54,358 nt of DNA from a virus (Duplodnaviria > Caudoviricetes): positions 1 through 54,358 of the IMG/VR virus record IMGVR_UViG_3300046703_000036, one strand, 5' to 3'. The notes under the pieces were generated by a model, which saw only the letters and a list, made by a program, of their open reading frames with translations, searched no databases and had not been told where the DNA came from. Both the position numbers and the translations under genes were made by a program. This document shows positions 16,642 through 54,358 of the stretch, one piece after another; position 1 is the first letter of the stretch; every line of letters begins with the position of its first letter.

Positions 16642-17057
16642 TGGTTTTGCCTAAATGGAAATGGACTCAGCAATCGCCGGGCCTCGCGAACCTCTGGTCT
16701 AAGATGAATCAGCGGGTCATAATCCAACAACAAAAGGGAACGGTCGACCTCGCGGGCGGGACTCCTCCCGACTTTGAGGACTACCTAACGGGGCCGGACG
16801 GACACGGAGTCGACGCTGAGATCAGGGAACCAAAGCCGGACGACATTATAATAGCTCTCGCAGCTAATATTAAACTCACACACGCGATAAAAGTCAGATA
16901 CGACAACAGAATCAAGGAAGATATGCAAATCAAATATTGGGACGACGGCGAGTATCACTATGCACGAATCAAGACGATAGTCGACCCGAACTTTAATCAC
17001 TTATACATGCTCTTGGGATGCGTCGAGGACGTCCCGCTTGCGGAGGCATATAGATAA
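16641..17057 (+). CDS. Head closure/stopper protein (SPP1 gp16-like)
   Basis: MNQRVIIQQ and THAIKVRY...IKEDMQI motifs; synteny. Confidence 0.85.
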   Translation: MVLPKWKWTQQSPGLANLWSKMNQRVIIQQQKGTVDLAGGTPPDFEDYLTGPDGHGVDAEIREPKPDDIIIALAANIKLTHAIKVRYDNRIKEDMQIKYWDDGEYHYARIKTIVDPNFNHLYMLLGCVEDVPLAEAYR

Positions 17058-17614
17058 TGGCCGGAGCAAAAGAACGGCTGGTCGATGCAAGTATCATCGG
17101 AGCGGACAAGCTCAAGGCTCAATTCGACTCAGCTCTCCCGAAGGTCAAGCAACAACTCGCGACCGATCTAAATAAGCTCGGATTCGACGCGGCTAATAAA
17201 CTGAGACAGCGGATCGCGGGGCCGCTCCCCCCGAGTGGCTATCCCGCCCGGAGGACGTCGCACATGATGACCGGGATTAGTGTCGAGAAGGCAAGCGCGA
17301 ACATGCCATTTGTGAATATCAGGTCTAAAGAAAAGTACTTCGGTTGGGTCAACGAGGGAACTCCGCCTCACGGCGTTAGCAAGGAGGGGCAAGCAGCAAT
17401 AGCACGATGGTCGATAGCGCACCCGTATTCGTATCAGGACAAAAAGTCGGGCAAGACCGTTAAAGTGTCCCCCGAAGCGAGCGCATATCTAATCTCCCGG
17501 GCAATCAAGAAGCGAGGAAGTCCGCCGAGACACATCACCGACGCGGTTATTCCGGGAATACAAGTAATAGCGAGACTCACCGTTGAGGCGGCTCTTGGGA
17601 GAGTGAACCTATGA
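17057..17614 (+). CDS. HK97 gp10-like neck protein
   Basis: YFGWVNEGTPPH and ISRAIKKRG motifs; synteny. Confidence 0.8.
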   Translation: MAGAKERLVDASIIGADKLKAQFDSALPKVKQQLATDLNKLGFDAANKLRQRIAGPLPPSGYPARRTSHMMTGISVEKASANMPFVNIRSKEKYFGWVNEGTPPHGVSKEGQAAIARWSIAHPYSYQDKKSGKTVKVSPEASAYLISRAIKKRGSPPRHITDAVIPGIQVIARLTVEAALGRVNL

Positions 17615-18075
17615 CAGTCACAGGAACGATAAAGAAAAACCCGCAATACGAATTAAGAATCTTTATTCGTGGGCTGCTCGACAACGCGATTTGGTATAAA
17701 GGGAAGACAGTCGCCGTATTCGAGGCCGTTCCGAAGGGCTATCCCCGGCCGTATATCGTCCTCGAGGATTGCACATGGGATAACGGGTCAACAAAGGACA
17801 AATTTGAGGAGGACTATGTTCTCAAGGTCGGCGTTTATACCGACTATGGGGGAACATTGGACAATTGCGCGATAATTAACGTCGTTTATGAGATACTCTC
17901 AACGAAATACAACGCGGGCGAACTGCAATTCGATACGGCAAGCGACTTTTGTGTTACTATATTTTGGTTCGGGAGTGGAGAGACGCGAGTCATGCGGGCG
18001 GAAGAAACAGGTTGGGAGGACGATCTCGAGCGAACGATGCTCGACCTTATGTTTAGAATTAAACAATTGAGGTGA
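17611..18075 (+). CDS. Tail terminator/completion protein (DUF3168-like)
   Basis: VFEAVP....PYIVL...W..GSTKD motif; synteny. Confidence 0.8.
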   Translation: MTVTGTIKKNPQYELRIFIRGLLDNAIWYKGKTVAVFEAVPKGYPRPYIVLEDCTWDNGSTKDKFEEDYVLKVGVYTDYGGTLDNCAIINVVYEILSTKYNAGELQFDTASDFCVTIFWFGSGETRVMRAEETGWEDDLERTMLDLMFRIKQLR

Positions 18076-32327: not shown

Positions 32328-32903
32328 GTGCGAAGCATGGATAAAACAATTTTTAAGAAAGCACACGTAGAGATAAACGCTCGGAGGGAAAAGCAATTGT
32401 CGGAGAATTCACCTAAACAAGAAGCAGCGCCAAAACATACGGATCACGAGCATGCAACAATAGAAGCACAGGTTCGATTAGACGCTATTGACAAAACTAT
32501 TGCGGAGATACGACAAACCGCTCACGAATCACAATTGGTAGCGCGAGAAAGCAGGGATGAATCGGTGCGGCAGGGGGTAGAAATAACCGGAATAGCAAAC
32601 TGGCAAAAAAGACAAAACGGTGAGATCTCAAGCATGGTTATATCATTTAATAACCTTTCAGTATCCGTTAATGATAAATTAGACGGGCTAAAGCTACAGA
32701 TTGATAAACTACATACAGCCCACTCAAATGAAATAGAACGTATTTGCGATCAATATGATGAAAAAATTGAAGCGGTGACTATTAACTCTCTAAAACAGAC
32801 AGCAAGCGATAGAGACACATTTCAACGTTGGCTTATTGCGATTATGGGGACTATTATTGCGGGTTTAATAATAACAGTCGTAAGTATTAGATTTGGGTTT
32901 TAA
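32328..32903 (+). CDS. Coiled-coil protein with C-terminal transmembrane helix (lysis-associated candidate)
   Basis: RQNG motif, heptad region and RWLIAIMGTIIAGLII; located after the tail genes. Confidence 0.6.
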   Translation: MRSMDKTIFKKAHVEINARREKQLSENSPKQEAAPKHTDHEHATIEAQVRLDAIDKTIAEIRQTAHESQLVARESRDESVRQGVEITGIANWQKRQNGEISSMVISFNNLSVSVNDKLDGLKLQIDKLHTAHSNEIERICDQYDEKIEAVTINSLKQTASDRDTFQRWLIAIMGTIIAGLIITVVSIRFGF

Positions 32904-36550: not shown

Positions 36551-37251
36551 AAAAGGTGAGATACGACATACACTCCAAACCAAAAGAGCCGCGGGTAAAC
36601 ACGGTTAAGAAGAAAAACCGCTATGATGTGAAGCTTGAAAAGATGGAAAAGCATCACGATGCGTTTGATAAACTTAGCCGTGAACAGCTCTGTAAGGAGT
36701 GCGATGTTAAGGCCGATGAATGGCCTAACTTATGGCACAGGATCAGCTTTTGGTTTAAGCACTTCAACAATGAGGTAGAATACAGAAAGGAGCAATACGG
36801 GGGCGAACTGCCAGAAATCGCGTATTATCAGTTAATCGAAAGATTCTATAATAGGTACAGACAGCGCCCACGACAATGCGATCCCGAAACATCGCTGTAT
36901 CAGGTTCCAGAGTGGACACATAAAGGAGAACTAGACACGCTTAAAATAGCGAAGCAAGCTAAGGGGCTTAATCGAGTGATCAGAGTTGCGGATAATCTAC
37001 GAGAAGATTTGCCGCTACAAATCTCGACGGCAGAGCTGCTAAGTGACGCAAAAGCACTCCTAGCTAAATCCACTGACTGTTCAATAGTCGATCAGGAGTT
37101 AGGCAAATGTCCGAAATGTAAGGGACCAATCGGCAGCATGTTTGTCGCGTGTCCTCGATGCGGTCGCGACTTAACAACAAGAGAAGGGGCTACGTCAGAG
37201 GATACACTAGAATATAGCGAACAAGCTGGACGGTTCCTTAACAAGAGGTAA
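36547..37251 (+). CDS. ParB-partner hypothetical protein, copy 1 (with C-terminal zinc ribbon)
   Basis: ATGA-coupled to ParB; aligns by eye with 48097-48621; CPKC...CPRC. Confidence 0.7.
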   Translation: MKKVRYDIHSKPKEPRVNTVKKKNRYDVKLEKMEKHHDAFDKLSREQLCKECDVKADEWPNLWHRISFWFKHFNNEVEYRKEQYGGELPEIAYYQLIERFYNRYRQRPRQCDPETSLYQVPEWTHKGELDTLKIAKQAKGLNRVIRVADNLREDLPLQISTAELLSDAKALLAKSTDCSIVDQELGKCPKCKGPIGSMFVACPRCGRDLTTREGATSEDTLEYSEQAGRFLNKR

Positions 37252-37255
37252 CACT

Positions 37256-37453
37256 ATGGGATACGCAAGCAAAGAATGGCTAGACAAACATGTGCAAGTA
37301 AGCATACCTAGAAAAGCACATACATGGCTAACAAAGAGAGCAGGACAAATACAAAATGAGACAGGACAAAGGATGGCAATAGGTGATGTTATCCTTCTGT
37401 TGATAGAAGCGATGGAACAATACGACGAGGAAAATCAAGTAGTATTCAAATAG
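37256..37453 (+). CDS. RHH-like small DNA-binding protein
   Basis: VQVSIPRKAHTWL...IGDVILLLI. Confidence 0.5.
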   Translation: MGYASKEWLDKHVQVSIPRKAHTWLTKRAGQIQNETGQRMAIGDVILLLIEAMEQYDEENQVVFK

Positions 37454-37496
37454 AGGAATGTGAATCGAATTAAAAACGAGGTAAGGTGAAAGAATT

Positions 37497-37622
37497 ATGG
37501 CAAAGCAATTAATGGCAAGGATCTTCACGCCCGAGGAGGCGCGTCTATTCTTGAAGTATTGGGTCGTCGTATTATCGGCGGCCGGGACATATCTCTTATT
37601 CTTTGGAATAAGCAAACTGTAA
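37497..37622 (+). CDS. Small membrane protein (41 aa, not in ORF track)
   Basis: GGTGAAAGAATTATG start; C-terminal hydrophobic helix. Confidence 0.6.
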   Translation: MAKQLMARIFTPEEARLFLKYWVVVLSAAGTYLLFFGISKL

Positions 37623-37633
37623 AGGAGTGGATC

Positions 37634-37942
37634 ATGGAAGACACAGAAAGCATAGAGGAATGCCGACACGGAGGTTGCGACGACTGCGACGAGGAGGTTC
37701 TCAGTCATGCGACCTTCCGACTAAACAGCAATGCGGGCAACATCAACGTCGTTATTGATGACGGAGCAGCGTATGATAACGCGATTCAAATGCTCAAAGG
37801 CATAAAGCCCATCTTACGACTAAAAGGGCGAACCCTTTGGAGTTTAAACGACACAGCGCAATTCGCCTTAGTGGTAACGAACCTATTGCTCGCCGTGATG
37901 ATTCTAATCTTATTTTTTAGATTAGGGACTTTTGGATTATAG
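37634..37942 (+). CDS. Membrane-anchored hypothetical protein
   Basis: AAGGAG SD; C-terminal transmembrane helix. Confidence 0.6.
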   Translation: MEDTESIEECRHGGCDDCDEEVLSHATFRLNSNAGNINVVIDDGAAYDNAIQMLKGIKPILRLKGRTLWSLNDTAQFALVVTNLLLAVMILILFFRLGTFGL

Positions 37943-37955
37943 GAGGTGAAAGAAC

Positions 37956-38228
37956 ATGAACGAACAACCAATGCAACAAACAATAAACGTAACGGGGGGG
38001 CCGTCTCGAAAGAGCCCGGTCTTAGCGGCTATTCTAGGTTTGCTCATAGTGGGCGTGGGCTTATTCTACGTCGGTAAATGGTGGGCTGGTCTCGGTCTTA
38101 TAATCGCGACCATAATAGGCTCAGTGTTTACGGGATTCCTTTTAGCGCCCGTCTTTTGGATAATAAGCGCCGTGTGGTCTTACATGGCCGCAAAGGACTA
38201 TAATAGGCGAGCGGGCTACCCGGGATAA
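37956..38228 (+). CDS. TM2-domain-like membrane protein
   Basis: KSPVLAAILGLLIVGVGLFYVGKWWAG motif. Confidence 0.75.
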   Translation: MNEQPMQQTINVTGGPSRKSPVLAAILGLLIVGVGLFYVGKWWAGLGLIIATIIGSVFTGFLLAPVFWIISAVWSYMAAKDYNRRAGYPG

Positions 38229-38232
38229 GCTA

Positions 38233-38403
38233 ATGGAGAACGCTTCAACACAACTCTCCGCACTCGAGATAATAATGCGGATAACCGAGCACACGAATAA
38301 TTGCCCGGTATATAGCGACTGCGACAACGCGGGCGTTATTGGAGAGTGTAACGAGTGCGACTGCCCGAAGCAATCGAGATTCAAACAAAGGAGCAAACAG
38401 TAA
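38233..38403 (+). CDS. Small Cys-rich protein (56 aa, not in ORF track)
   Basis: CPVYSDC...CNECDC; fills the gap before the terminator. Confidence 0.5.
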   Translation: MENASTQLSALEIIMRITEHTNNCPVYSDCDNAGVIGECNECDCPKQSRFKQRSKQ

Positions 38404-38429
38404 GGCGCTTCACGGCGTCTTTTTTCTTT
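38403..38429 (+). terminator. Hairpin plus T-tract
   Basis: AGGCGC-TTCACG-GCGTCT, then a T-rich run. Confidence 0.6.
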
Positions 38430-38586
38430 GGAGGAGTGGTCTAGCGGAACGATTCTTGGCGAAGGCATGCTCATCTGTGGTTTAATGAACAGATCAAACG
38501 TTGCAGCGTACACAGCGCGGGTCGACGCGGGTGCGTGGGCATGCCCGGCGGTTCAAGAGACAAGGGTTCAACTCCCTTCTCCTCCA
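38430..38586 (+). ncRNA. tRNA-like RNA with a large structured insert in place of the anticodon loop
   Basis: Acceptor GGAGGAG/CTCCTCC plus A73; D-arm with A14, G15, G18, G19, A21; stem CTTGG/TCAAG; variable loop AGAC; T-arm AAGGG-TTCAACT-CCCTT; no U33-type anticodon loop. Confidence 0.8.
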
Positions 38587-38650
38587 CTTTTAACGAAAAT
38601 TATATGCCTTAGAGGCTTCATATTTAAACCCGGTTGGACGAGGTGAGTAG

Positions 38651-38658
38651 TTATATAA
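38651..38658 (+). promoter_or_regulatory. TATA box for the candidate small RNA
   Basis: TTATATAA about 25 nt upstream of the stem start at 38683. Confidence 0.6.
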
Positions 38659-38681
38659 CAGTGAGCATACCCAATATAGCA

Positions 38682-38772
38682 TGTCGACGGAGCAAAAGCC
38701 ATAATTCTTTCACCAATCAACGGCTTGTTTTACGTCCTATCTCTGTCGACCCTCACCTATGTTCTCCTTTTA
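38682..38772 (+). ncRNA. Candidate antisense small RNA complementary to viral ribosome-binding sites
   Basis: Stems 38683-38692/38741-38750 and 38696-38700/38722-38726; 38698-38714 is the exact reverse complement of 37485-37501. Confidence 0.6.
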
Positions 38773-38828
38773 GTATATTACTATTAGGGTATTACCATTA
38801 GGTATATAACAAAAAGCGGAGGCTATCT

Positions 38829-39836
38829 ATGGCGATATGGTTGGGGGTCGGAGGCGGTGCGTGGAGCGTCAACGAAGCAAACTGCAAGGCTCTTTTTGAC
38901 TTAGGCGCGAGAGACGTTCAAGCGGTCATGCCCGATTTAAACGTGCATGCGGCCGAACTCGCAGCTATTAAAAAATTTGGTATGACGGCGACATCAGATA
39001 TTGAGGTTCCCTTATGGGTTAATACGGGAATGAACCCGAACGTCGACATCTCATGGGCAAAGCCGCAACTTCAAGCACAAAAGAACGCGGGTTGGCAGTA
39101 CTTCTCAAGTGAGGGTTTGGGGCGGGGCCAAGTCGATGTAATACGCTCGGTCGCTCCTTTTTTGAACTATGGTTCCGAGAACGGGGCCAATATGTACGCG
39201 GGACAATATAATCACGCGACCGACTCGCACTATGCGAACCTTTTGGAATCTTATCACAAGTGGGCGATCAATGACTATTACGCGAGCGCAGCGATCGCCA
39301 AACAGAACTCGCCGAGGTTTGGAATCACGCTCATGATGTATGCGGCCGACCTCGAGACGGACATCAATGCACTCTTAAACTATATCGACAAAGTTGGGAA
39401 CGTTCAAGAGGTCTTATTATGGTGCGGGCTCAATGACACGGTCATGAAGGTCTTTAGCTCTCCATGGATAGACATAGTCAAAGCAATTAAAGCAAAATAC
39501 GGATTCAGAACCGACACTCCTTGGGCGGCTGTTACACCTCCGCCTCCGCCTCCGCCGCCTCCACAAGACGTCATTCTCAAAGCCGATGCTTATACGTTTG
39601 TTAGAGGAACGAACTCGGCCGTATATGTTAAAGGGCTGGTCAATGGTAAATGGACGCCCGCTTGGACAAGCATCGGCGGAATTGCGACGGGCGCTCCTCA
39701 GCAAACAAAAGCACCCGACGGAACGGTCTTTGTCTTTGTCCGAGGAAGCGACGGGGCTCAATGGTATAAGTCAGTTGACCCGACGACCGGGAAGTTCTCG
39801 GCGTGGGCGACCTTGAGCGGATTATTAGCACCCTAA
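38829..39836 (+). CDS. Putative glycosidase-like protein with poly-Pro linker and PLL-type lectin repeats
   Basis: Paralog of the 26509 N-domain (GW....EG.G, NYG, ESY/ETY, WCG); two FVRG repeats. Confidence 0.65.
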   Translation: MAIWLGVGGGAWSVNEANCKALFDLGARDVQAVMPDLNVHAAELAAIKKFGMTATSDIEVPLWVNTGMNPNVDISWAKPQLQAQKNAGWQYFSSEGLGRGQVDVIRSVAPFLNYGSENGANMYAGQYNHATDSHYANLLESYHKWAINDYYASAAIAKQNSPRFGITLMMYAADLETDINALLNYIDKVGNVQEVLLWCGLNDTVMKVFSSPWIDIVKAIKAKYGFRTDTPWAAVTPPPPPPPPPQDVILKADAYTFVRGTNSAVYVKGLVNGKWTPAWTSIGGIATGAPQQTKAPDGTVFVFVRGSDGAQWYKSVDPTTGKFSAWATLSGLLAP

Positions 39837-40290: not shown

Positions 40291-40747
40291 GCGACGCGAG
40301 TTCTATACGCGCATGTCTCAAGGAGAAGACCTATGCGACGTCGTCCGGTCTATATCGGCGAAGTACGGAGTCACCGACAACCGACTCTATCACGATTGGA
40401 AAGACCGGGGGACTTGGGGCGACTATGTCCTTATCGAATTCGAGGAGGAATTCATAGTTCAAGACTACCTCCAAGAGATTCGCGAGATCGAGAAGACCCT
40501 TTGGGAAATAGCGCTCAACTCTCCCGACGATAAGTCCCGCATTGCAGCACTCGCACAACTCAAGGATATTAAGTTTAAGCGGCTTACAGCGAACCAAGAA
40601 CTCGGACGCATACACAAAGAGCCGGTCAAGATACAGATACAAGAACACATCGACCGGATATATTCGACGATACAAGAGGTCGCGGGGGACGACAAGGTTC
40701 TCCAAGGCCGTATAATAGACAAGATGTTGTATGAGCGTGGCAATTAA
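40253..40747 (+). CDS. Putative terminase small subunit
   Basis: N-terminal HTH (ISAKYGVTDNRLYHDW) and RIAAL helix; directly upstream of the terminase ATPase. Confidence 0.7.
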   Translation: MANVKPQAKLDNRRREFYTRMSQGEDLCDVVRSISAKYGVTDNRLYHDWKDRGTWGDYVLIEFEEEFIVQDYLQEIREIEKTLWEIALNSPDDKSRIAALAQLKDIKFKRLTANQELGRIHKEPVKIQIQEHIDRIYSTIQEVAGDDKVLQGRIIDKMLYERGN

Positions 40748-41567
40748 AGATATAGGGGCAATACCTCCACAAACGCCGAGGATAGACAACCCGACTCTCG
40801 AGGACTTAGTCGCACTAAGCAAGAGTCCGGTTCACTTCGCCCGGGCGGTCGGGTTCCCGAACTTAGACCCGTGGCAAGAGGAAGTCCTCAACTCTGACAG
40901 CAACCGCGTGATCTTGAATTGTTGCCGACAATCGGGCAAGAGTGCAATGGCTTCGATTATCGCTATCACGCATGCACTCTACACGCCCGGGTCAATGGTA
41001 ATAATAATCTCGCACACGTTACAGCAAGCGGGCGAGACATTCCGCAAGGTTCACGACTACTATAAACGAGTCGCCCGCCCGGTGATAAGTATAACGGAGT
41101 CCGTTCACCGATTAGAACTATCGAACGGGTCTCGGGTGGTCACACTTACGGGCAAGGCTCCCGACTCTATTCGAGGGTTCTCAAACGTCTCTCTCCTTAT
41201 CGTCGACGAGGCTTCGCAAGTCCCCGACGAGTCCTATCACGCCGCGAGACCAATGCTCGCCGTCAGCGAGGGCCGGATCATCTTGCTATCGACCCCTCAC
41301 GGGAAGCAAGGCTTTTTCTATGACACGTGGGCGAATAAGGAAGGCTGGCTCAAGATCGAGATTAACGCCGACCAAGTCCCGAGGTTCACAAAAGCGTTTA
41401 TTTGGGATGAGAAGATGACTATGGTCGGTTGGTTCTTTAGGCAAGAATATTACAACGAATTCGCCGAAGGCATAACAAGCGTCTTTAGAGCAGAGGATAT
41501 TAAGGCGGCTCTCAATCATCCCGAGCTTAAAGTGTTAGATATAGACATGAGTCTTGATGACCTATGA
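40731..41567 (+). CDS. terL: Terminase large subunit, ATPase domain only
   Basis: Q motif (DPWQ), Walker A CRQSGKS, Walker B LLIVDEA, coupling motif LSTP, RQEY. Confidence 0.92.
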   Translation: MSVAIKDIGAIPPQTPRIDNPTLEDLVALSKSPVHFARAVGFPNLDPWQEEVLNSDSNRVILNCCRQSGKSAMASIIAITHALYTPGSMVIIISHTLQQAGETFRKVHDYYKRVARPVISITESVHRLELSNGSRVVTLTGKAPDSIRGFSNVSLLIVDEASQVPDESYHAARPMLAVSEGRIILLSTPHGKQGFFYDTWANKEGWLKIEINADQVPRFTKAFIWDEKMTMVGWFFRQEYYNEFAEGITSVFRAEDIKAALNHPELKVLDIDMSLDDL

Positions 41568-41728
41568 TAAATCAATCAAATCAATCCGTCAAAAATTGTA
41601 TAACATGCGGGAATCTCCGACTCCTTGATGAGTCTTATATATGCATGGCAGGGGAGGAACGCCCCGAATTAAAAGACATGCTCGGCGAGTGTCCGCAATG
41701 GAAGCCGTTTAGAGGGGACGCTTCTTAA
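41564..41728 (+). CDS. 54-aa Cys-rich protein between the terminase halves (not in ORF track)
   Basis: ATGA overlap upstream and TAATG overlap downstream; CITC...C...C. Confidence 0.65.
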   Translation: MINQSNQSVKNCITCGNLRLLDESYICMAGEERPELKDMLGECPQWKPFRGDAS

Positions 41729-42495
41729 TGCCGAGATTGTCTTGGATGCCGGGCGATCCGTTTGACGTCGAGGCGCTCTATGACGACCTTGACGCTCCTA
41801 GGAAAAAGGCCCGGGACGACGAACTCATGGAGAAGTCGACCGAATGGAGGACGACCGAATACGGGAACTATAACAAAAGCATCTTTGTCGGCGTTGACCT
41901 TGGCAAAAAGTCCGACTATACGGCGATCGTCTTCTTGTGTCCCTTCTTACCGATCAATCCCGAGGAAGATCAAACCCGGTTCGTTTATCATATTTCAAAG
42001 ATCGACCGGCTCCCGCTCGAGACCCCTTATCCTATTGTCGCGAGGCTGCTCCGCAAGATCAATAAGCAGCTCCTCAAACATCCGCACGTCAATTATGTTT
42101 ACTACGTCATAGATGAGGGGGGCGTCGGAACGGCCGTCGCCGATCAGGTTATCGAGCTTATTCCAAGCGCCGACATTTATCGCGTTACACTTACCGGGGG
42201 GCTCCGTCCTAAATGGCAAGACCAAAGGAACGTCAGTCTCCCAAAGCCACAAATGGCGTCGACATTGATCGCGTTGTTTGAGTCGCGGCGCTTATGGGTA
42301 GCTCCCGACTTAAAAAATACAGTCGACGAACTAGAGAGGGAACTCATGACATACGAGAGGAAGATCACAGCGGCCGGACACGATCAGTTCGGCGCTATGA
42401 AAATTGGCGAGCATGACGATATTGCTTCGGCAATCGGACTCGCTGCTTGGATTGCGGAGGACTTACAAGGCGGGAGTGTCCCGCTTATATGGTGA
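41728..42495 (+). CDS. terL: Terminase large subunit, RNase H-like nuclease domain only
   Basis: FVGVDLGKKSDYTAI, IDEGGVG and HDDIASA motifs. Confidence 0.9.
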   Translation: MPRLSWMPGDPFDVEALYDDLDAPRKKARDDELMEKSTEWRTTEYGNYNKSIFVGVDLGKKSDYTAIVFLCPFLPINPEEDQTRFVYHISKIDRLPLETPYPIVARLLRKINKQLLKHPHVNYVYYVIDEGGVGTAVADQVIELIPSADIYRVTLTGGLRPKWQDQRNVSLPKPQMASTLIALFESRRLWVAPDLKNTVDELERELMTYERKITAAGHDQFGAMKIGEHDDIASAIGLAAWIAEDLQGGSVPLIW

Positions 42496-47012: not shown

Positions 47013-47138
47013 ATGGAATCCATAACAAACATTCCAATAAATGTAGAGACCCGGGAACTTCTTAAGAAGCGTGGCTCCAAGGGGGATACTTACGACGCGA
47101 TCATCCGGGAACTTTTGGATAAGGTGAAAGAAGTATGA
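47013..47138 (+). CDS. Archaeal RHH/antitoxin-like regulator (not in ORF track)
   Basis: TNIPINVETRELLKKRGSKGDTYDAIIRELL; leaderless after AACCTTTTTGAAG; ATGA-coupled to ParB copy 2. Confidence 0.8.
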   Translation: MESITNIPINVETRELLKKRGSKGDTYDAIIRELLDKVKEV

Positions 47139-48097
47139 CACAAGCAATATATGAGACAGTCGAGTTGCCGATCGACGACGTTAAGCCGTCAACACACAAC
47201 CCGAGAAAAACATTCGACAAAGAGCAACTCGATATATTAAGGGACTCGATCAAACAACACGCGATCCTTGAGCCGATCCTTGTCCGCAAGGAAGGTCTTG
47301 AGATCATAGACGGCGAGAGACGTTGGAGGTCTTTAAGGGGCAACGGTGCGGCAACCATCGTCGCTCGAATCTATGACGTCGACGAACCAACGGCCGCCGA
47401 GATACGACTAACCGCACAAATGCAACGGGTCGATTTAAGCGACCGTGAGAAGGAAGACGCTCTTTATGAGTTGTGGATTGAAGGGAGCGAGACCGGCCGA
47501 TATGAGACACAGAGAGACATGGCAAAAGCGACAGGAATTAATATTCAGACTCTTAAGCGGTTTATTTCGGCAAAAGGAGAAAGGGCCGCACTACAGGATG
47601 AGGGAATCGAAAATGTCTCAGCGATTGATTTAAGCGAAACACACATACTCAAAGAATCAGACCCCGACGCTCGCAACGAACTACTCATGCAACGGCAAGA
47701 AGGGAACATAACATGGGACGAGATGCGAGAACTAAAGAACATAATCGCCGAGAAGGATCACGGAGATAAATCAGCAAAGGAAATTATTGATGAGTTCAAG
47801 ACAATCAAACAAGAGCAAAAGGCCGAGACTCGGGACGCTTTAAAACGTCGGAAGCTCCAAGGACAAGGGGTCGAGGACATCGTTGTCACCAAAGGGGTGC
47901 AAGAATTCGAGGAGTTCACGTCGGAGAGTCGATTGCTCAAAGACTATCAAGACACATACTCTCGCGTTTGGAGTTCGTTCAGAGTCGACGTCCTCAAGAA
48001 CATGAAGGACGAATCAAAACAAAAGGCATGCGTGAACCTCGTTTGGAAGGTATATAAAGCGTCCGAGGAGGTTCTTAACGAGATGGGGGTTCTCTGA
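47135..48097 (+). CDS. ParB/Sulfiredoxin-like N-domain protein, copy 2
   Basis: NPRKTFD, ILEPILVR and EIIDGERRWRS; HTH TQRDMAKATG. Confidence 0.9.
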   Translation: MTQAIYETVELPIDDVKPSTHNPRKTFDKEQLDILRDSIKQHAILEPILVRKEGLEIIDGERRWRSLRGNGAATIVARIYDVDEPTAAEIRLTAQMQRVDLSDREKEDALYELWIEGSETGRYETQRDMAKATGINIQTLKRFISAKGERAALQDEGIENVSAIDLSETHILKESDPDARNELLMQRQEGNITWDEMRELKNIIAEKDHGDKSAKEIIDEFKTIKQEQKAETRDALKRRKLQGQGVEDIVVTKGVQEFEEFTSESRLLKDYQDTYSRVWSSFRVDVLKNMKDESKQKACVNLVWKVYKASEEVLNEMGVL

Positions 48098-49376: not shown

Positions 49377-49425
49377 CGTTACTAATATATACATAGAAGA
49401 CTATTATAGGTGAGGTGAAAGACTT

Positions 49426-49605
49426 ATGGCAAAAGTATTCGTTGAACTATCCGACGGCGACTCAGTTCAAAAGAGAGGTCTTATTGAAATCTCCCGGGAG
49501 AACTATGAGAAGCTCGAGAAGATACGTGAAGACACAGAGATCGCGAGCGGACGCAAGACCACAATAGACGACGTCTTATTCGAGCTGACTTATGGCCGCT
49601 ATTAA
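49426..49605 (+). CDS. RHH-like protein (not in ORF track)
   Basis: GAGGTGA SD; IEISRENYEKL...TIDDVL. Confidence 0.6.
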   Translation: MAKVFVELSDGDSVQKRGLIEISRENYEKLEKIREDTEIASGRKTTIDDVLFELTYGRY

Positions 49606-50323: not shown

Positions 50324-50338
50324 GGAGGTGAAAGAATT

Positions 50339-50461
50339 ATGGATAGGGTTGCTCAAGTTGCTCAAACGAGCGAAGCAGATACGAAATACCTATTGGACTT
50401 GATAGACGAAATCGAAGCACGACTCGAGAGAATCGAGATGAATAAGGGGTGGGGAAATTGA
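50339..50461 (+). CDS. Small helical protein (not in ORF track)
   Basis: AAGGAGGTGAAAGAATTATG start. Confidence 0.6.
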   Translation: MDRVAQVAQTSEADTKYLLDLIDEIEARLERIEMNKGWGN

Positions 50462-53378: not shown

Positions 53379-54129
53379 CGGAGCATACACATACTTCCTT
53401 AAGAAGTATTTCGACGTTTGGAAAGACGAATGGAAGCTCGATTTAGACAAGGCCGACGTAAAGGTCATGCTCTTAAAGCCCGGTTACAATCCGAGTTGGA
53501 CTCGCGACAAGTTCGTCGAGCAGATCAAAAAGCATGAGATCAAGAAGGGCATGGTCAAGAAAAAGGTTCCGCAAGAGGTCAAACGCGATCCGCTTACATA
53601 TTTCAGTCATTGGACGACAGTGGACAAGACCGAGGAAGTTGAAATAGAAGTCCCAAACGGCTACGACGAAGGCGGCAAGAGCATCGGCCCGCTTGGCTCA
53701 TATCAAAGGCAGCAACGTTGTTTAAATGTATTTGACGAGTGGGAAGATTGGACGGTCACAACACTATATGCTAAAAAGGAGGCCGTCGGTTGGGGCATGG
53801 ACGACACGCTCGAGGAATACCCGAACAAAGCAACGTTAGTCGTCGGCTCAATGGTCTTCTATCTAAACAACGGGACGGACAAGAACTCAGTATTAATCAC
53901 TCACTGCGAACTTGGCCATAAATGCGAGAACGGATCGTTTAACATAGTGTTTAATCCCCGGGGAATCGCAAAAGCAAGCATCTTAAACGGCGACAAGAAG
54001 ACGCTCTTTGCGGATAGGGGCATTCATTGGACACAAGGTCGGGGATGTCGTAAAAAGAAAAGGGAGTATTCACCGGAAGCCATGGAAGACATTGAATTGG
54101 TGACATCGGCCGAACCTATCAAATATTAA
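53371..54129 (+). CDS. Diverged homolog of structural protein 9242-9688
   Basis: VKVMLL...Y.P, NGY..GGK.I and NGSFNIVF..GI align with 9242; carries charged insertions. Confidence 0.6.
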   Translation: MSDGAYTYFLKKYFDVWKDEWKLDLDKADVKVMLLKPGYNPSWTRDKFVEQIKKHEIKKGMVKKKVPQEVKRDPLTYFSHWTTVDKTEEVEIEVPNGYDEGGKSIGPLGSYQRQQRCLNVFDEWEDWTVTTLYAKKEAVGWGMDDTLEEYPNKATLVVGSMVFYLNNGTDKNSVLITHCELGHKCENGSFNIVFNPRGIAKASILNGDKKTLFADRGIHWTQGRGCRKKKREYSPEAMEDIELVTSAEPIKY

Positions 54130-54211
54130 CACAAAACACGAATCATAAGCGAGTGATTTGTACAATACGACACAGATATTAGAACAACGCGAAAAGGACA
54201 CGGTGAGGAAC
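54085..54211. repeat. Terminal direct repeat, copy 2
   Basis: Identical to 1-127. Confidence 0.95.
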
Positions 54212-54212
54212 T

Positions 54213-54358
54213 ATGAGCATAAAGCGAAGGATTGACAACGAAATAGGCGAGATAGAGTTCGTTGTCTTTGTATTGTCGCTTGGCATAGTCGAGGCATACG
54301 ACTATCTTAAGAGCAAGGCAACGGGCAAGAAATGGATGTTAGAAAAAGAAGGCGAATA
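54213..54358 (+). CDS. Small membrane protein (allele B), cut at the probable stop codon by the window end
   Basis: MSIKRRIDNEIGEIEFVVFVLSLGIVEAYDYLKSKATGKKWMLEKEGE, then TA. Confidence 0.7.
   Translation, partial: MSIKRRIDNEIGEIEFVVFVLSLGIVEAYDYLKSKATGKKWMLEKEGE

Follow-up and report, generated by a model that had tools for sequence, protein, structure and literature searches.

A hairpin with conserved RNA-type pairing in a peat siphovirus and the complementarity of its loop to the start regions of four viral genes

Antisense RNAs that mask ribosome-binding sites (RBSs) are known from a few model phages, namely c4 of P1/P7, sar of P22 and Tant of phiH, and each of them acts on one or two nearby targets. 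In the case of c4 the masked site is the RBS of icd, and the c4 precursor carries its own upstream copies of the complementary sequence. The c4 RNA is described in PMC8546580 as an RNA that represses protein synthesis in trans through loops with complementarity to a ribosome-binding region, and its processing by RNase P is described in PMC11143913. The RNAs sRNA41 and sRNA154 of Methanosarcina mazei are presented as trans-acting small RNAs (sRNAs) whose anti-RBS loops mask RBSs, several of them within polycistronic mRNAs (PMC5867862), and Tant of the haloarchaeal tailed virus phiH as an antisense RNA that acts on an early transcript, whose ribosome-binding region it removes or neutralises (PMC4284463). 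In the present study we analysed a viral DNA of 54,358 nucleotides (IMG/VR record IMGVR_UViG_3300046703_000036, positions 1 to 54,358), which we call the window. A first-pass annotation of the window, made from the letters alone, had proposed that a small viral RNA at 38651-38772 silences a dispersed set of genes through a loop complementary to their start regions, and had stated that it knew of no described equivalent in archaeal tailed viruses. Equivalents are, however, described, namely c4, Tant and sRNA41/sRNA154.

The window is a 54-kb siphovirus genome with 86 called open reading frames (ORFs), all of which lie on the plus strand. The 17-mer GGTGAAAGAATTATGGC heads four of the plus-strand genes, and its exact reverse complement occurs once, at 38698-38714. 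When up to three mismatches were allowed, the window contained five matches to this 17-mer, at 37485 (plus strand, no mismatch), 38698 (minus strand, none), 50327 (plus, one), 49414 (plus, one) and 47123 (plus, two). The expected number was 0.25, and none of 100 shuffles of the whole window reached five. Beyond a core of about 17-20 nt, the five sites have nothing in common.

Nearly all gene starts of the window carry a Shine-Dalgarno (SD) sequence of the GGAGGTGA type and an A-rich spacer. That is, the gene starts of this genome resemble each other, and we therefore built a stricter null from the position profile of 85 gene starts, with 1000 simulations. Two pairs of starts agreed at 16/17 or better where this profile null gave 0.004, and four pairs agreed at 15/17 or better where it gave 0.134; the probability of the motif given the gene-start profile was about 1.5e-7. 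We also scanned the plus strand for complements of the 85 start 17-mers, and agreement of at least 16/17 was found only at 38698-38714 (17, 16, 16 and 15). The exact loop word had no match, and the exact 17-mer had ten single, unrelated matches, which is the level of chance. The observation of a 17-mer family with one inverted copy is confirmed, and the positions previously given for the SD, stem, loop and anti-SD features, the 17-mer matches and the 10/10 match at 37945-37954 all proved correct.

The strength of pairing was calculated in kcal/mol from duplexes of the loop alone with the 85 start regions. This calculation replaced a duplexfold run with the whole RNA (92 nt against start regions of 50 nt), which was rejected because its energies were inflated and did not discriminate, shuffled sequences being equally good. 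With the loop alone, the best four of the 85 partners were the four start regions listed in Table 1, as the first-pass annotation had expected, and the best value over 300 shuffled loops was -24.1.

The complementary segment lies in a hairpin of the plus strand. The arms of the main stem, GTCGACGGAG and CTCTGTCGAC, form nine Watson-Crick pairs and one G.U pair on this strand, and an inner stem, AAGCC/GGCTT, closes a loop of 21 nt. The fold of the plus strand over 38675-38775 had a free energy of -19.1 and a z value of -2.24, with 4 of 200 shuffles as stable, and the fold of the minus strand had a z value of -1.51, with 13 of 200 shuffles as stable. The loop bases 38701-38714 had a mean unpaired probability of 0.95. 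A trans-acting anti-RBS RNA is recognised by an accessible segment that is complementary to the SD sequence and start codon of genes elsewhere, and such a segment is found here with matches of 17/17, 16/17, 16/17 and 15/17. Anti-SD 5-mers are enriched at 38681-38780, which belongs to the top 0.76% of 100-nt windows. The plus-strand ORF at this place has seven codons, from the ATG at 38681. Four DNA sequencing runs that were mapped to the window showed 38400-38830 without variation, and one contig of run X2, which spans 37056-39006, had no difference from the window.

We compared three lineages, namely W (the window), R (L063-L065; records G263, G264 and G262), which was found by an alignment-based scan, and S (L077; record G265), which was found by TerL alignment. 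Lineage R is syntenic with the window genome-wide, at about 40-70% amino-acid identity. Single-protein searches of IMG/VR returned no close relative for the 335-aa protein, ParB or the portal, the matches of TerL-N there were at 24-26% only, and blastn against a phage collection gave no match. A further metagenome locus, L004, has the downstream gene alone in common with the window (59% identity); it is little informative, because an HNH endonuclease gene stands where the element would be.

Both R and S have a homologous spacer before the gene that matches 38829-39836 in position. This gene is a 51%-identical homologue in R and a 391-aa gene in S, of which only the PLL-lectin C-terminus is in common with the window. 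Global alignments of the spacers gave z values of 6.15 for W and R, 3.93 for W and S, and 7.93 for R and S, and none of 500 shuffles was as good in any of the three comparisons. The parts of the spacer follow one another in the same order in all lineages: a terminator hairpin with its T-run, two A/T boxes (boxes A and B in Table 1), AGGUGAG without a start codon, a variable short hairpin that holds the TATA element, a main hairpin of 10-11 bp, CUCACCU, and a U-rich stretch. CUCACCU lies 1-3 nt past the main stem across the lineages, and its position is kept in R and S. The equivalent of the 38402 terminator in R and S is GCGGGGCAAACCCGC followed by T8, at the same place, and the U-rich tail has counterparts at its place in the form of T6 in S and a U-rich stretch in R. 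The last 25 nt or so before the downstream ATG are nearly identical between W and S.

The arms of the main hairpin were aligned by hand on their invariant CGAC/GUCG core, which gave a table of ten pairs in three lineages. All 30 cells of this table are paired, and at four of the ten pairs (2, 7, 8 and 9) both sides are changed. All four G.U cells have their G in the 5' arm, so that all four would be C.A mismatches in an RNA of the minus strand. The outer helix AGGUGAG:CUCACCU has an invariant core in W, R and S, and one flanking pair is G-C in R and A-U in S. In alignments of the hairpin made with MAFFT the 3' arm of W is wrongly placed, and for this reason the RNAalifold counts were disregarded as far as the window is concerned. 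With a covariance model of R and S, the arms, the SD-like sequence and the tail of W were aligned exactly as in the alignment by hand. The compensatory changes in the three lineages and the orientation of the G.U cells support the view that the hairpin is a conserved RNA-type structure of the plus strand, and in this respect the earlier proposal of a conserved RNA hairpin is borne out.

Box A of the window is aligned with TCGACAACTATAAGGC in R and GAAACTATAAGTG in S, and its core is AAAATTATATGCC in W and AACTATAAG in both R and S. Box A may serve as a promoter. The first-pass annotation had instead taken TTATATAA (38651-38658) as the TATA box of a promoter. This sequence is located within the structure and is variable among the relatives, box C being TCTATATACC or TCTATACATC even among the records of R, and the conserved promoter-like boxes lie further upstream; the assignment is thus not upheld. 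Under its own criteria, a scan for sigma-70 promoters returned none in the elements of S and R, and TTGACC-N17-TATAAG can be seen by eye in the S element. As for the boundaries of the element, the hairpin stands as it was described, but the whole is larger, reaching over about 38592-38772, because conserved boxes lie upstream of the TATA sequence.

Table 1. Positions of the start sites, the hairpin element and the neighbouring features in the window (duplex energies in kcal/mol)
Feature	Position	Strand	Remarks
Target 1 (17/17)	37485-37501	+	Start of 41-aa membrane protein gene 37497-37622; duplex -29.5
Weaker partner (10/10)	37945-37954	+	Start of 90-aa gene for a protein with two transmembrane segments; duplex -15.6
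Terminator-like hairpin AAGGCGCTTCACGGCGTCTT + T-run	38402-38430	+	Ends upstream cluster of small genes; terminator scan lists 38402-38421
tRNA-like element	38430-38587	+	Insertion of the window lineage (probable), outside the conserved element
Minus-strand ORF, 44 codons	38568-38702	-	Judged not to be a gene
Box A AACGAAAATTATATGCC	38592-38608	+	Promoter-like A/T box, conserved; some 35 nt upstream of SD-like sequence
Box B CATATTTAAACCCGG	38619-38633	+	Conserved A/T box (alignment)
SD-like GAGGTGAG, without start codon after it	38640-38647	+	5' strand of outer helix; pairs with 38752-38758
Box C TAGTTATATAACA	38648-38660	+	Contains the TATA sequence of the first-pass annotation; 12/13 identical to 38799-38811
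Main hairpin	38683-38750	+	Arms 38683-38692 / 38741-38750; inner stem 38696-38700 / 38722-38726
Anti-RBS 17-mer GCCATAATTCTTTCACC	38698-38714	+	Exact complement of SD + spacer + ATG + GC of gene at 37497
Anti-SD CTCACCT, like 16S 3' end	38752-38758	+	3' strand of outer helix, 1 nt past stem
U-rich tail TCCTTTTA	38765-38772	+	Possible 3' end or attenuator; not in terminator scan list
Box C2 TAGGTATATAACA	38799-38811	+	18 nt before ATG of next gene
Downstream gene	38829-39836	+	TIM-barrel glycosidase-like domain, poly-Pro linker (9 prolines), PLL-lectin blades
Target 4 (15/17)	47123-47139	+	Start of second ParB-N-domain gene (47135, 320 aa); duplex -19.1
Target 2 (16/17)	49414-49430	+	Start of 59-aa gene (49426); duplex -26.6
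Target 3 (16/17)	50327-50343	+	Start of 40-aa gene (50339); duplex -25.7

We propose that the complementary loop is the apical part of a conserved plus-strand RNA element of about 140-180 nt, which would occupy about 38592-38772. In a small clade of peat siphoviruses, this element is found after a terminator and ahead of the gene that opens the lectin-like/TerS/TerL block. The plus-strand RNA might be a short promoter-proximal transcript, or else it might form the leader of the mRNA downstream. Its open 21-nt loop would then pair with the shared SD-spacer-AUG block of four of the virus's own genes, and this pairing would block the binding of the 30S subunit at those start regions, so that dispersed small non-structural genes would be turned down together. 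The SD-like:anti-SD helix would serve as a closing stem or as a decoy. We put the probability that a plus-strand leader or small RNA masks start sites in this manner, as in P1 c4 or M. mazei sRNA41, at about 0.45, and the proposal is accordingly a tentative one. The transcription of the element, the ends of the RNA, its pairing in vivo and the repression are inferred here from the sequence. Since all 86 called genes lie on the plus strand, transcription of this strand through the spacer is the default expectation. Of the free sRNA of about 90 nt that the first-pass annotation had envisaged, the conserved RNA-type hairpin of the plus strand stands, but the element heads the lectin-like/terminase block and for this reason may be an mRNA leader instead.

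A wider form of the proposal is that the element is a riboregulator of the whole clade, with a fixed scaffold (the SD decoy paired with a mimic of the 16S end, and the covarying hairpin), a retargetable apical loop and a decoy for the ribosome site, and that a four-gene regulon was captured in W. The loop would then drift or be rewritten in each lineage so as to fit the starts of other accessory genes of the same virus. We regard this wider form as unlikely. In G263 of lineage R, the loop had one outlier among 65 starts, that of an 89-aa gene (5+7+6 bp at -26.6, the next start reaching -17.9), a result that was equalled by 1 of 200 shuffles. The corresponding site in G262 is probably at the ends of the record, as judged from the coordinates of the synteny blocks. 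The motif of the window had no match in R, and the motif of R matched the window at three mismatches only; the loop motifs are by these comparisons specific to their lineages, and the exact anti-RBS loop is specific to W. The loop motif UUCYUUCA is common to W and R. The homologue in S of the 41-aa gene of W (15 of 35 residues identical) adjoins the element directly upstream, so that the gene with the perfect target in W was probably beside the element ancestrally. That loop and target motifs co-vary among relatives thus has one outlier target in R in its favour but none in S, and the co-variation is weak.

Two further observations concern motifs and starts in the relatives. In S, the 10-mer AAGGTGAGAC occurs in four copies against 0.11 expected (L077 2589-2711; in G265rc at 32450, 32673, 32785 and 45128), namely at the start of a 40-aa membrane gene, at the start of a 94-aa gene and in the 5' strand of the element, with the complement in the tail of the element. 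This family parallels the motif family of W and uses the tail, not the loop. In R, the interval from the portal to the protease/scaffold gene (L069 1321-2289, equal to about 16970-17938 of G264) holds extra ORFs for a 64-aa, an 89-aa zinc-ribbon and a 159-aa HNH-like protein, which are lacking in W; the start of the 89-aa zinc-ribbon gene is the outlier partner of the R loop.

The following results weigh against the masking of start sites by this RNA. First, the loop of G262 had no outlier, with 92.5% of shuffles as good as its best site, and neither had the loop of S, whose best value of -23.9 was matched by 34.5% of shuffles. The homologues of the W target genes in R and S have no matching family motif, except the membrane-protein gene. 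R and S do have a CAU-N7-anti-SD arrangement on the plus strand; it is partly base-paired, and it may in part simply reflect the pyrimidine-rich 3' arm. Second, a generic anti-SD effect of the loop was not significant: the loop had 34 sites at -10 or below and shuffled loops had 23, a count that 14% of the shuffles equalled; a perfect complementarity over 17 nt is, moreover, atypical of trans-acting sRNAs. Third, only three lineages were available, and of the four records of relatives two hardly differ from each other. The covariance model from R and S did not find the W element in the search of 29 sources or in a search of the whole window with filters off, and on the 201-nt syntenic stretch it gave a weak match at 38638-38763 of the plus strand (4.1 bits, E 0.071). 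Finally, the terminator scan lists no clean terminator after the hairpin, so that a discrete sRNA is putative, and the sequencing runs listed for the virus are six peat metagenomes with no RNA run among them.

The same covariance model found nothing in 24 distant TerL relatives (L081-L104) or in L004, save a marginal match in L101 (E 0.19). With Rfam 15, the whole window gave no match at gathering scores, and a search at E<=10 over 38300-38900 gave five weak matches, none of them on the hairpin. These matches were to tmRNA (on the tRNA-like element), mascRNA, GlsR5, isrK and permuted tmRNA. The C4 antisense RNA family is included in Rfam.

Among the other explanations, we consider it somewhat unlikely, but the most serious of them, that the element acts purely in cis, as a structured, promoter-proximal leader or attenuator of the lectin-like/terminase ("late") block. 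Read-through into the downstream gene, or its translation, would then depend on the hairpin together with the SD-like:anti-SD helix, and the 17-nt match would be a lineage-specific by-product without a role in trans. What is conserved is indeed the architecture and its position before the same gene block, not the relation between loop and targets, and all three lineages have U-rich stretches after the outer helix and W and S agree almost completely over the stretch before the ATG. Since UUCYUUCA is present in both W and R, this part of the loop could be an ancestral feature rather than a start region that was copied recently. However, a cis-acting leader leaves unexplained both the exact 17/17 complement, which is unique in the genome, and the four-gene family, which exceeds the profile null. 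In addition, the complementarity of the loop to the start of the downstream gene extends over only about 6 nt, and the fold of the whole leader is no stabler than that of shuffles (z -0.41). The main hairpin also differs from an intrinsic terminator, which is G+C-rich and has a loop of 3-8 nt and an adjoining T-run: the stem at 38683-38750 is missing from the list of the terminator scan, it encloses 48 nt, and a T4 run follows 19 nt after it.

It is improbable that the inverted repeats, the hairpin arms among them, act at the level of DNA, as operator, recombination or packaging sites that are read by a protein. The half-sites AGGTGAG...CTCACCT lie about 109-111 bp apart in all lineages, the 17-mer pair at 37485 and 38698 forms perfect inverted repeats that flank 1196 bp, and the virus encodes two ParB-N-domain proteins as well as winged helix-turn-helix and helix-turn-helix proteins that might read such sites. 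A symmetric protein site, however, does not predict that the asymmetries of the arms are compatible with G.U pairing on the plus strand only, as is the case for four of four. The direct 17-mers are likewise in register with SD and ATG in four of four cases, a sign that they have to do with translation. Neither an integrase nor a resolvase was found, and no target-site duplication was seen at the 17-mer pair.

A still less probable explanation is that an RNA-binding protein uses the direct copies of the 17-mer as a translational operator, much as RegA does in T4, or that these copies are an optimal start that was spread by recombination, and that the inverted copy is unrelated to their regulation. 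The family is A/U-rich around AUG and stands before small non-structural genes, and the similarity of a related contig breaks at 37474, 11 nt upstream of the motif, which is itself unchanged. This explanation fails to account for the exact inverted copy in the loop of a conserved hairpin, and no RegA-like protein was identified among the 60 window proteins scanned against Pfam.

The contig in question, from run X3, covers 37474-37590 and is unlike the window upstream of 37474. Within the 41-aa ORF it has four changes, of which two are synonymous and one codon changes I to V, and such mostly synonymous changes indicate that the tiny gene is under purifying selection. On the evidence of this contig, a mosaic boundary is located just before the motif at 37485.

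That the inverted motif is the RBS of a real minus-strand gene, the 44-codon ORF, or belongs to a ribosome-loaded minus-strand transcript is very unlikely. A full SD, 7 nt and an ATG are followed there by 44 open codons, about 12% of random ATGs being estimated to open as many, and the A/T boxes, being near-palindromes, might drive transcription either way. However, the equivalent ATG opens an ORF of only 10 codons in R and of 6 in S, the three peptides have no similarity, and it is this lack of conservation that makes a coding function so doubtful. No homologue was found in a search that covered proteins of 24-77 aa. The ORF is also absent from a collection of 15 billion proteins in which four of seven other queried window ORFs (those of 40, 59, 90 and 335 aa) are present. 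Its coding score, 0.073 per codon, is lower than those of all 14 small genes (at least 0.139), although it ranks among the highest 6% of open windows on the antisense strand. Furthermore, the ORF runs into the tRNA-like element, no called gene of the window lies on the minus strand, and the C.A mismatches fall in the stem of a minus-strand RNA. The first-pass annotation had named conservation of this ORF as a finding that would speak against its proposal, and such conservation was not found.

Chance resemblance, for which one can cite the strong SDs and A-rich spacers that make gene starts look alike, is very unlikely to the point of being negligible, because both nulls are exceeded, the complement is unique in the scan with 85 starts, and P is about 1.5e-7.

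Upstream of the element, the tRNA-like element has a perfect acceptor stem of 7 bp and a T arm, and an insert of 86-121 nt replaces the normal anticodon arm. ARAGORN reported nothing for 38430-38587 in its default run, and with introns allowed it reported a tRNA-Arg(GCG) with an 86-nt intron at 32/33. Position 33 is G instead of the U33 of a tRNA, the D arm is weak, no bulge-helix-bulge could be drawn by reading the sequence, and the tmRNA model of Rfam gave 20.2 bits against a gathering score of 47. The tRNA-like element is absent from R (L063-L065) and was not seen on reading the S (L077) element, on which no tRNA scan was run. From this distribution, it seems to have been inserted, in the window lineage, into the T-run that follows the terminator. 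It might direct the processing of the RNA that lies 95 nt downstream. A role as attP was rejected, as no tyrosine or serine recombinase was found and the 3' end is generic, being common to many bacterial tRNA-Ala/Ser and archaeal tRNA-Leu genes.

The gene downstream of the element, 38829-39836, is the first of the block that runs to TerS/TerL. About 80 aa of its product match the PLL-type lectin propeller of Photorhabdus lectins with E 2e-23. Among the 60 window proteins scanned against Pfam there was no member of a classical endolysin family, and the product may for this reason be a lysin or a depolymerase.

The window was also examined for the likely host. The major capsid protein has 42% identity to that of Burkholderia phages, and TerL-N has 42% identity to Meiothermus phages versus 31% to a haloarchaeal virus. 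Terminators of the hairpin-plus-T-run type are present at sensible places, and the nearest clusters of the 38829-39836 protein are bacterial, which we take as leads only. Portal matches were found in 8 of 261 Methanomassiliicoccales genomes at 20-27% identity only, and none of these 261 genomes contained a close provirus. Box A can also be read as a sequence like a B recognition element with TATA box, which points to the archaeal side. No domain-specific marker was found in Pfam/NCBIfam scans of 60 window and 10 R proteins. The capsid and terminase hallmark genes thus look bacterial, and on these comparisons we lean toward a bacterial host. The premise of an archaeal tailed virus, from which the first-pass annotation had started, is unsupported in view of the capsid and terminase identities and of the terminators.

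Several features of the genome were observed along with these analyses. The first 245 or so nucleotides of the window are repeated near its 3' end (54085-54358) as a near-identical terminal direct repeat, with a change of 1 nt in offset and short gaps in identity, and the record is classed as "linear, 82% complete". The large terminase lies in two plus-strand ORFs, an ATPase (40731-41567, 278 aa) and a nuclease (41728-42495, 255 aa), with a 54-aa ORF (41564-41728, plus strand) between them. The best phage match of this split terminase is from a Meiothermus phage (42%) and is annotated "terminase, ATPase subunit", and the relatives also show both terminase blocks by tblastx. In L037, a metagenome-assembled genome of Methanomassiliicoccales, the 3' part (about 55 nt) of a tRNA-Leu(CAG) gene at 2261-2347 is repeated about 600 nt further on (2880-2960). 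Such a duplication is typical of an element that has integrated into a tRNA gene, and it is unrelated to the window virus.

If the RNA acts in trans, it would represent a simple viral post-transcriptional regulon that can be read from the sequence. Shared start-region motifs in phage genomes could then be operators and not merely strong RBSs, which would affect annotation. The case is directly testable with reporters, because the regulator and the operators are both only 17 nt long. Should the element act only in cis, as a leader, it would still be a new conserved RNA motif of the clade.

Control at the head of a gene block, and of start sites in cis or through proteins, is familiar from PR'-6S RNA-tR' of lambda, which lies ahead of the lysis and packaging genes, from gene e of T4, and from RegA and RegB of T4. 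The present element resembles the lambda leaders and the T4 hairpins in its location at the head of a lysis/packaging block, in its SD:anti-SD pairing, and in the possible use of start-site recognition for timing sets of genes. To our knowledge, none of these systems carries an exact complement of the start regions of distant genes. The element is like sRNA41 and sRNA154 of M. mazei in having an anti-RBS sequence in a loop; unlike the present case, those RNAs are cellular and have limited complementarity, whereas here the RNA would be viral, the complementarity is a perfect 17 nt, and an archaeal host is not established. Tant of phiH is encoded in cis, opposite a single target, whereas here the element lies on the same strand as its distant putative targets.

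The element also resembles c4 of the P1/P7 immI operon, a phage RNA that shares the strand of its targets and has loops complementary to a ribosome-binding region. We found no sequence or Rfam similarity to c4, and the element heads a lectin-like/terminase block and not an antirepressor operon. With regard to c4 processing, a tRNA-like element lies 95 nt upstream here, in the window only. Unlike c4, the element has four dispersed putative targets with one common 17-mer. What is new here, compared with the known systems, is thus a structured RNA that appears to be conserved in a clade at the boundary between accessory and packaging genes, and whose loop, in one lineage, is complementary to four scattered gene starts.

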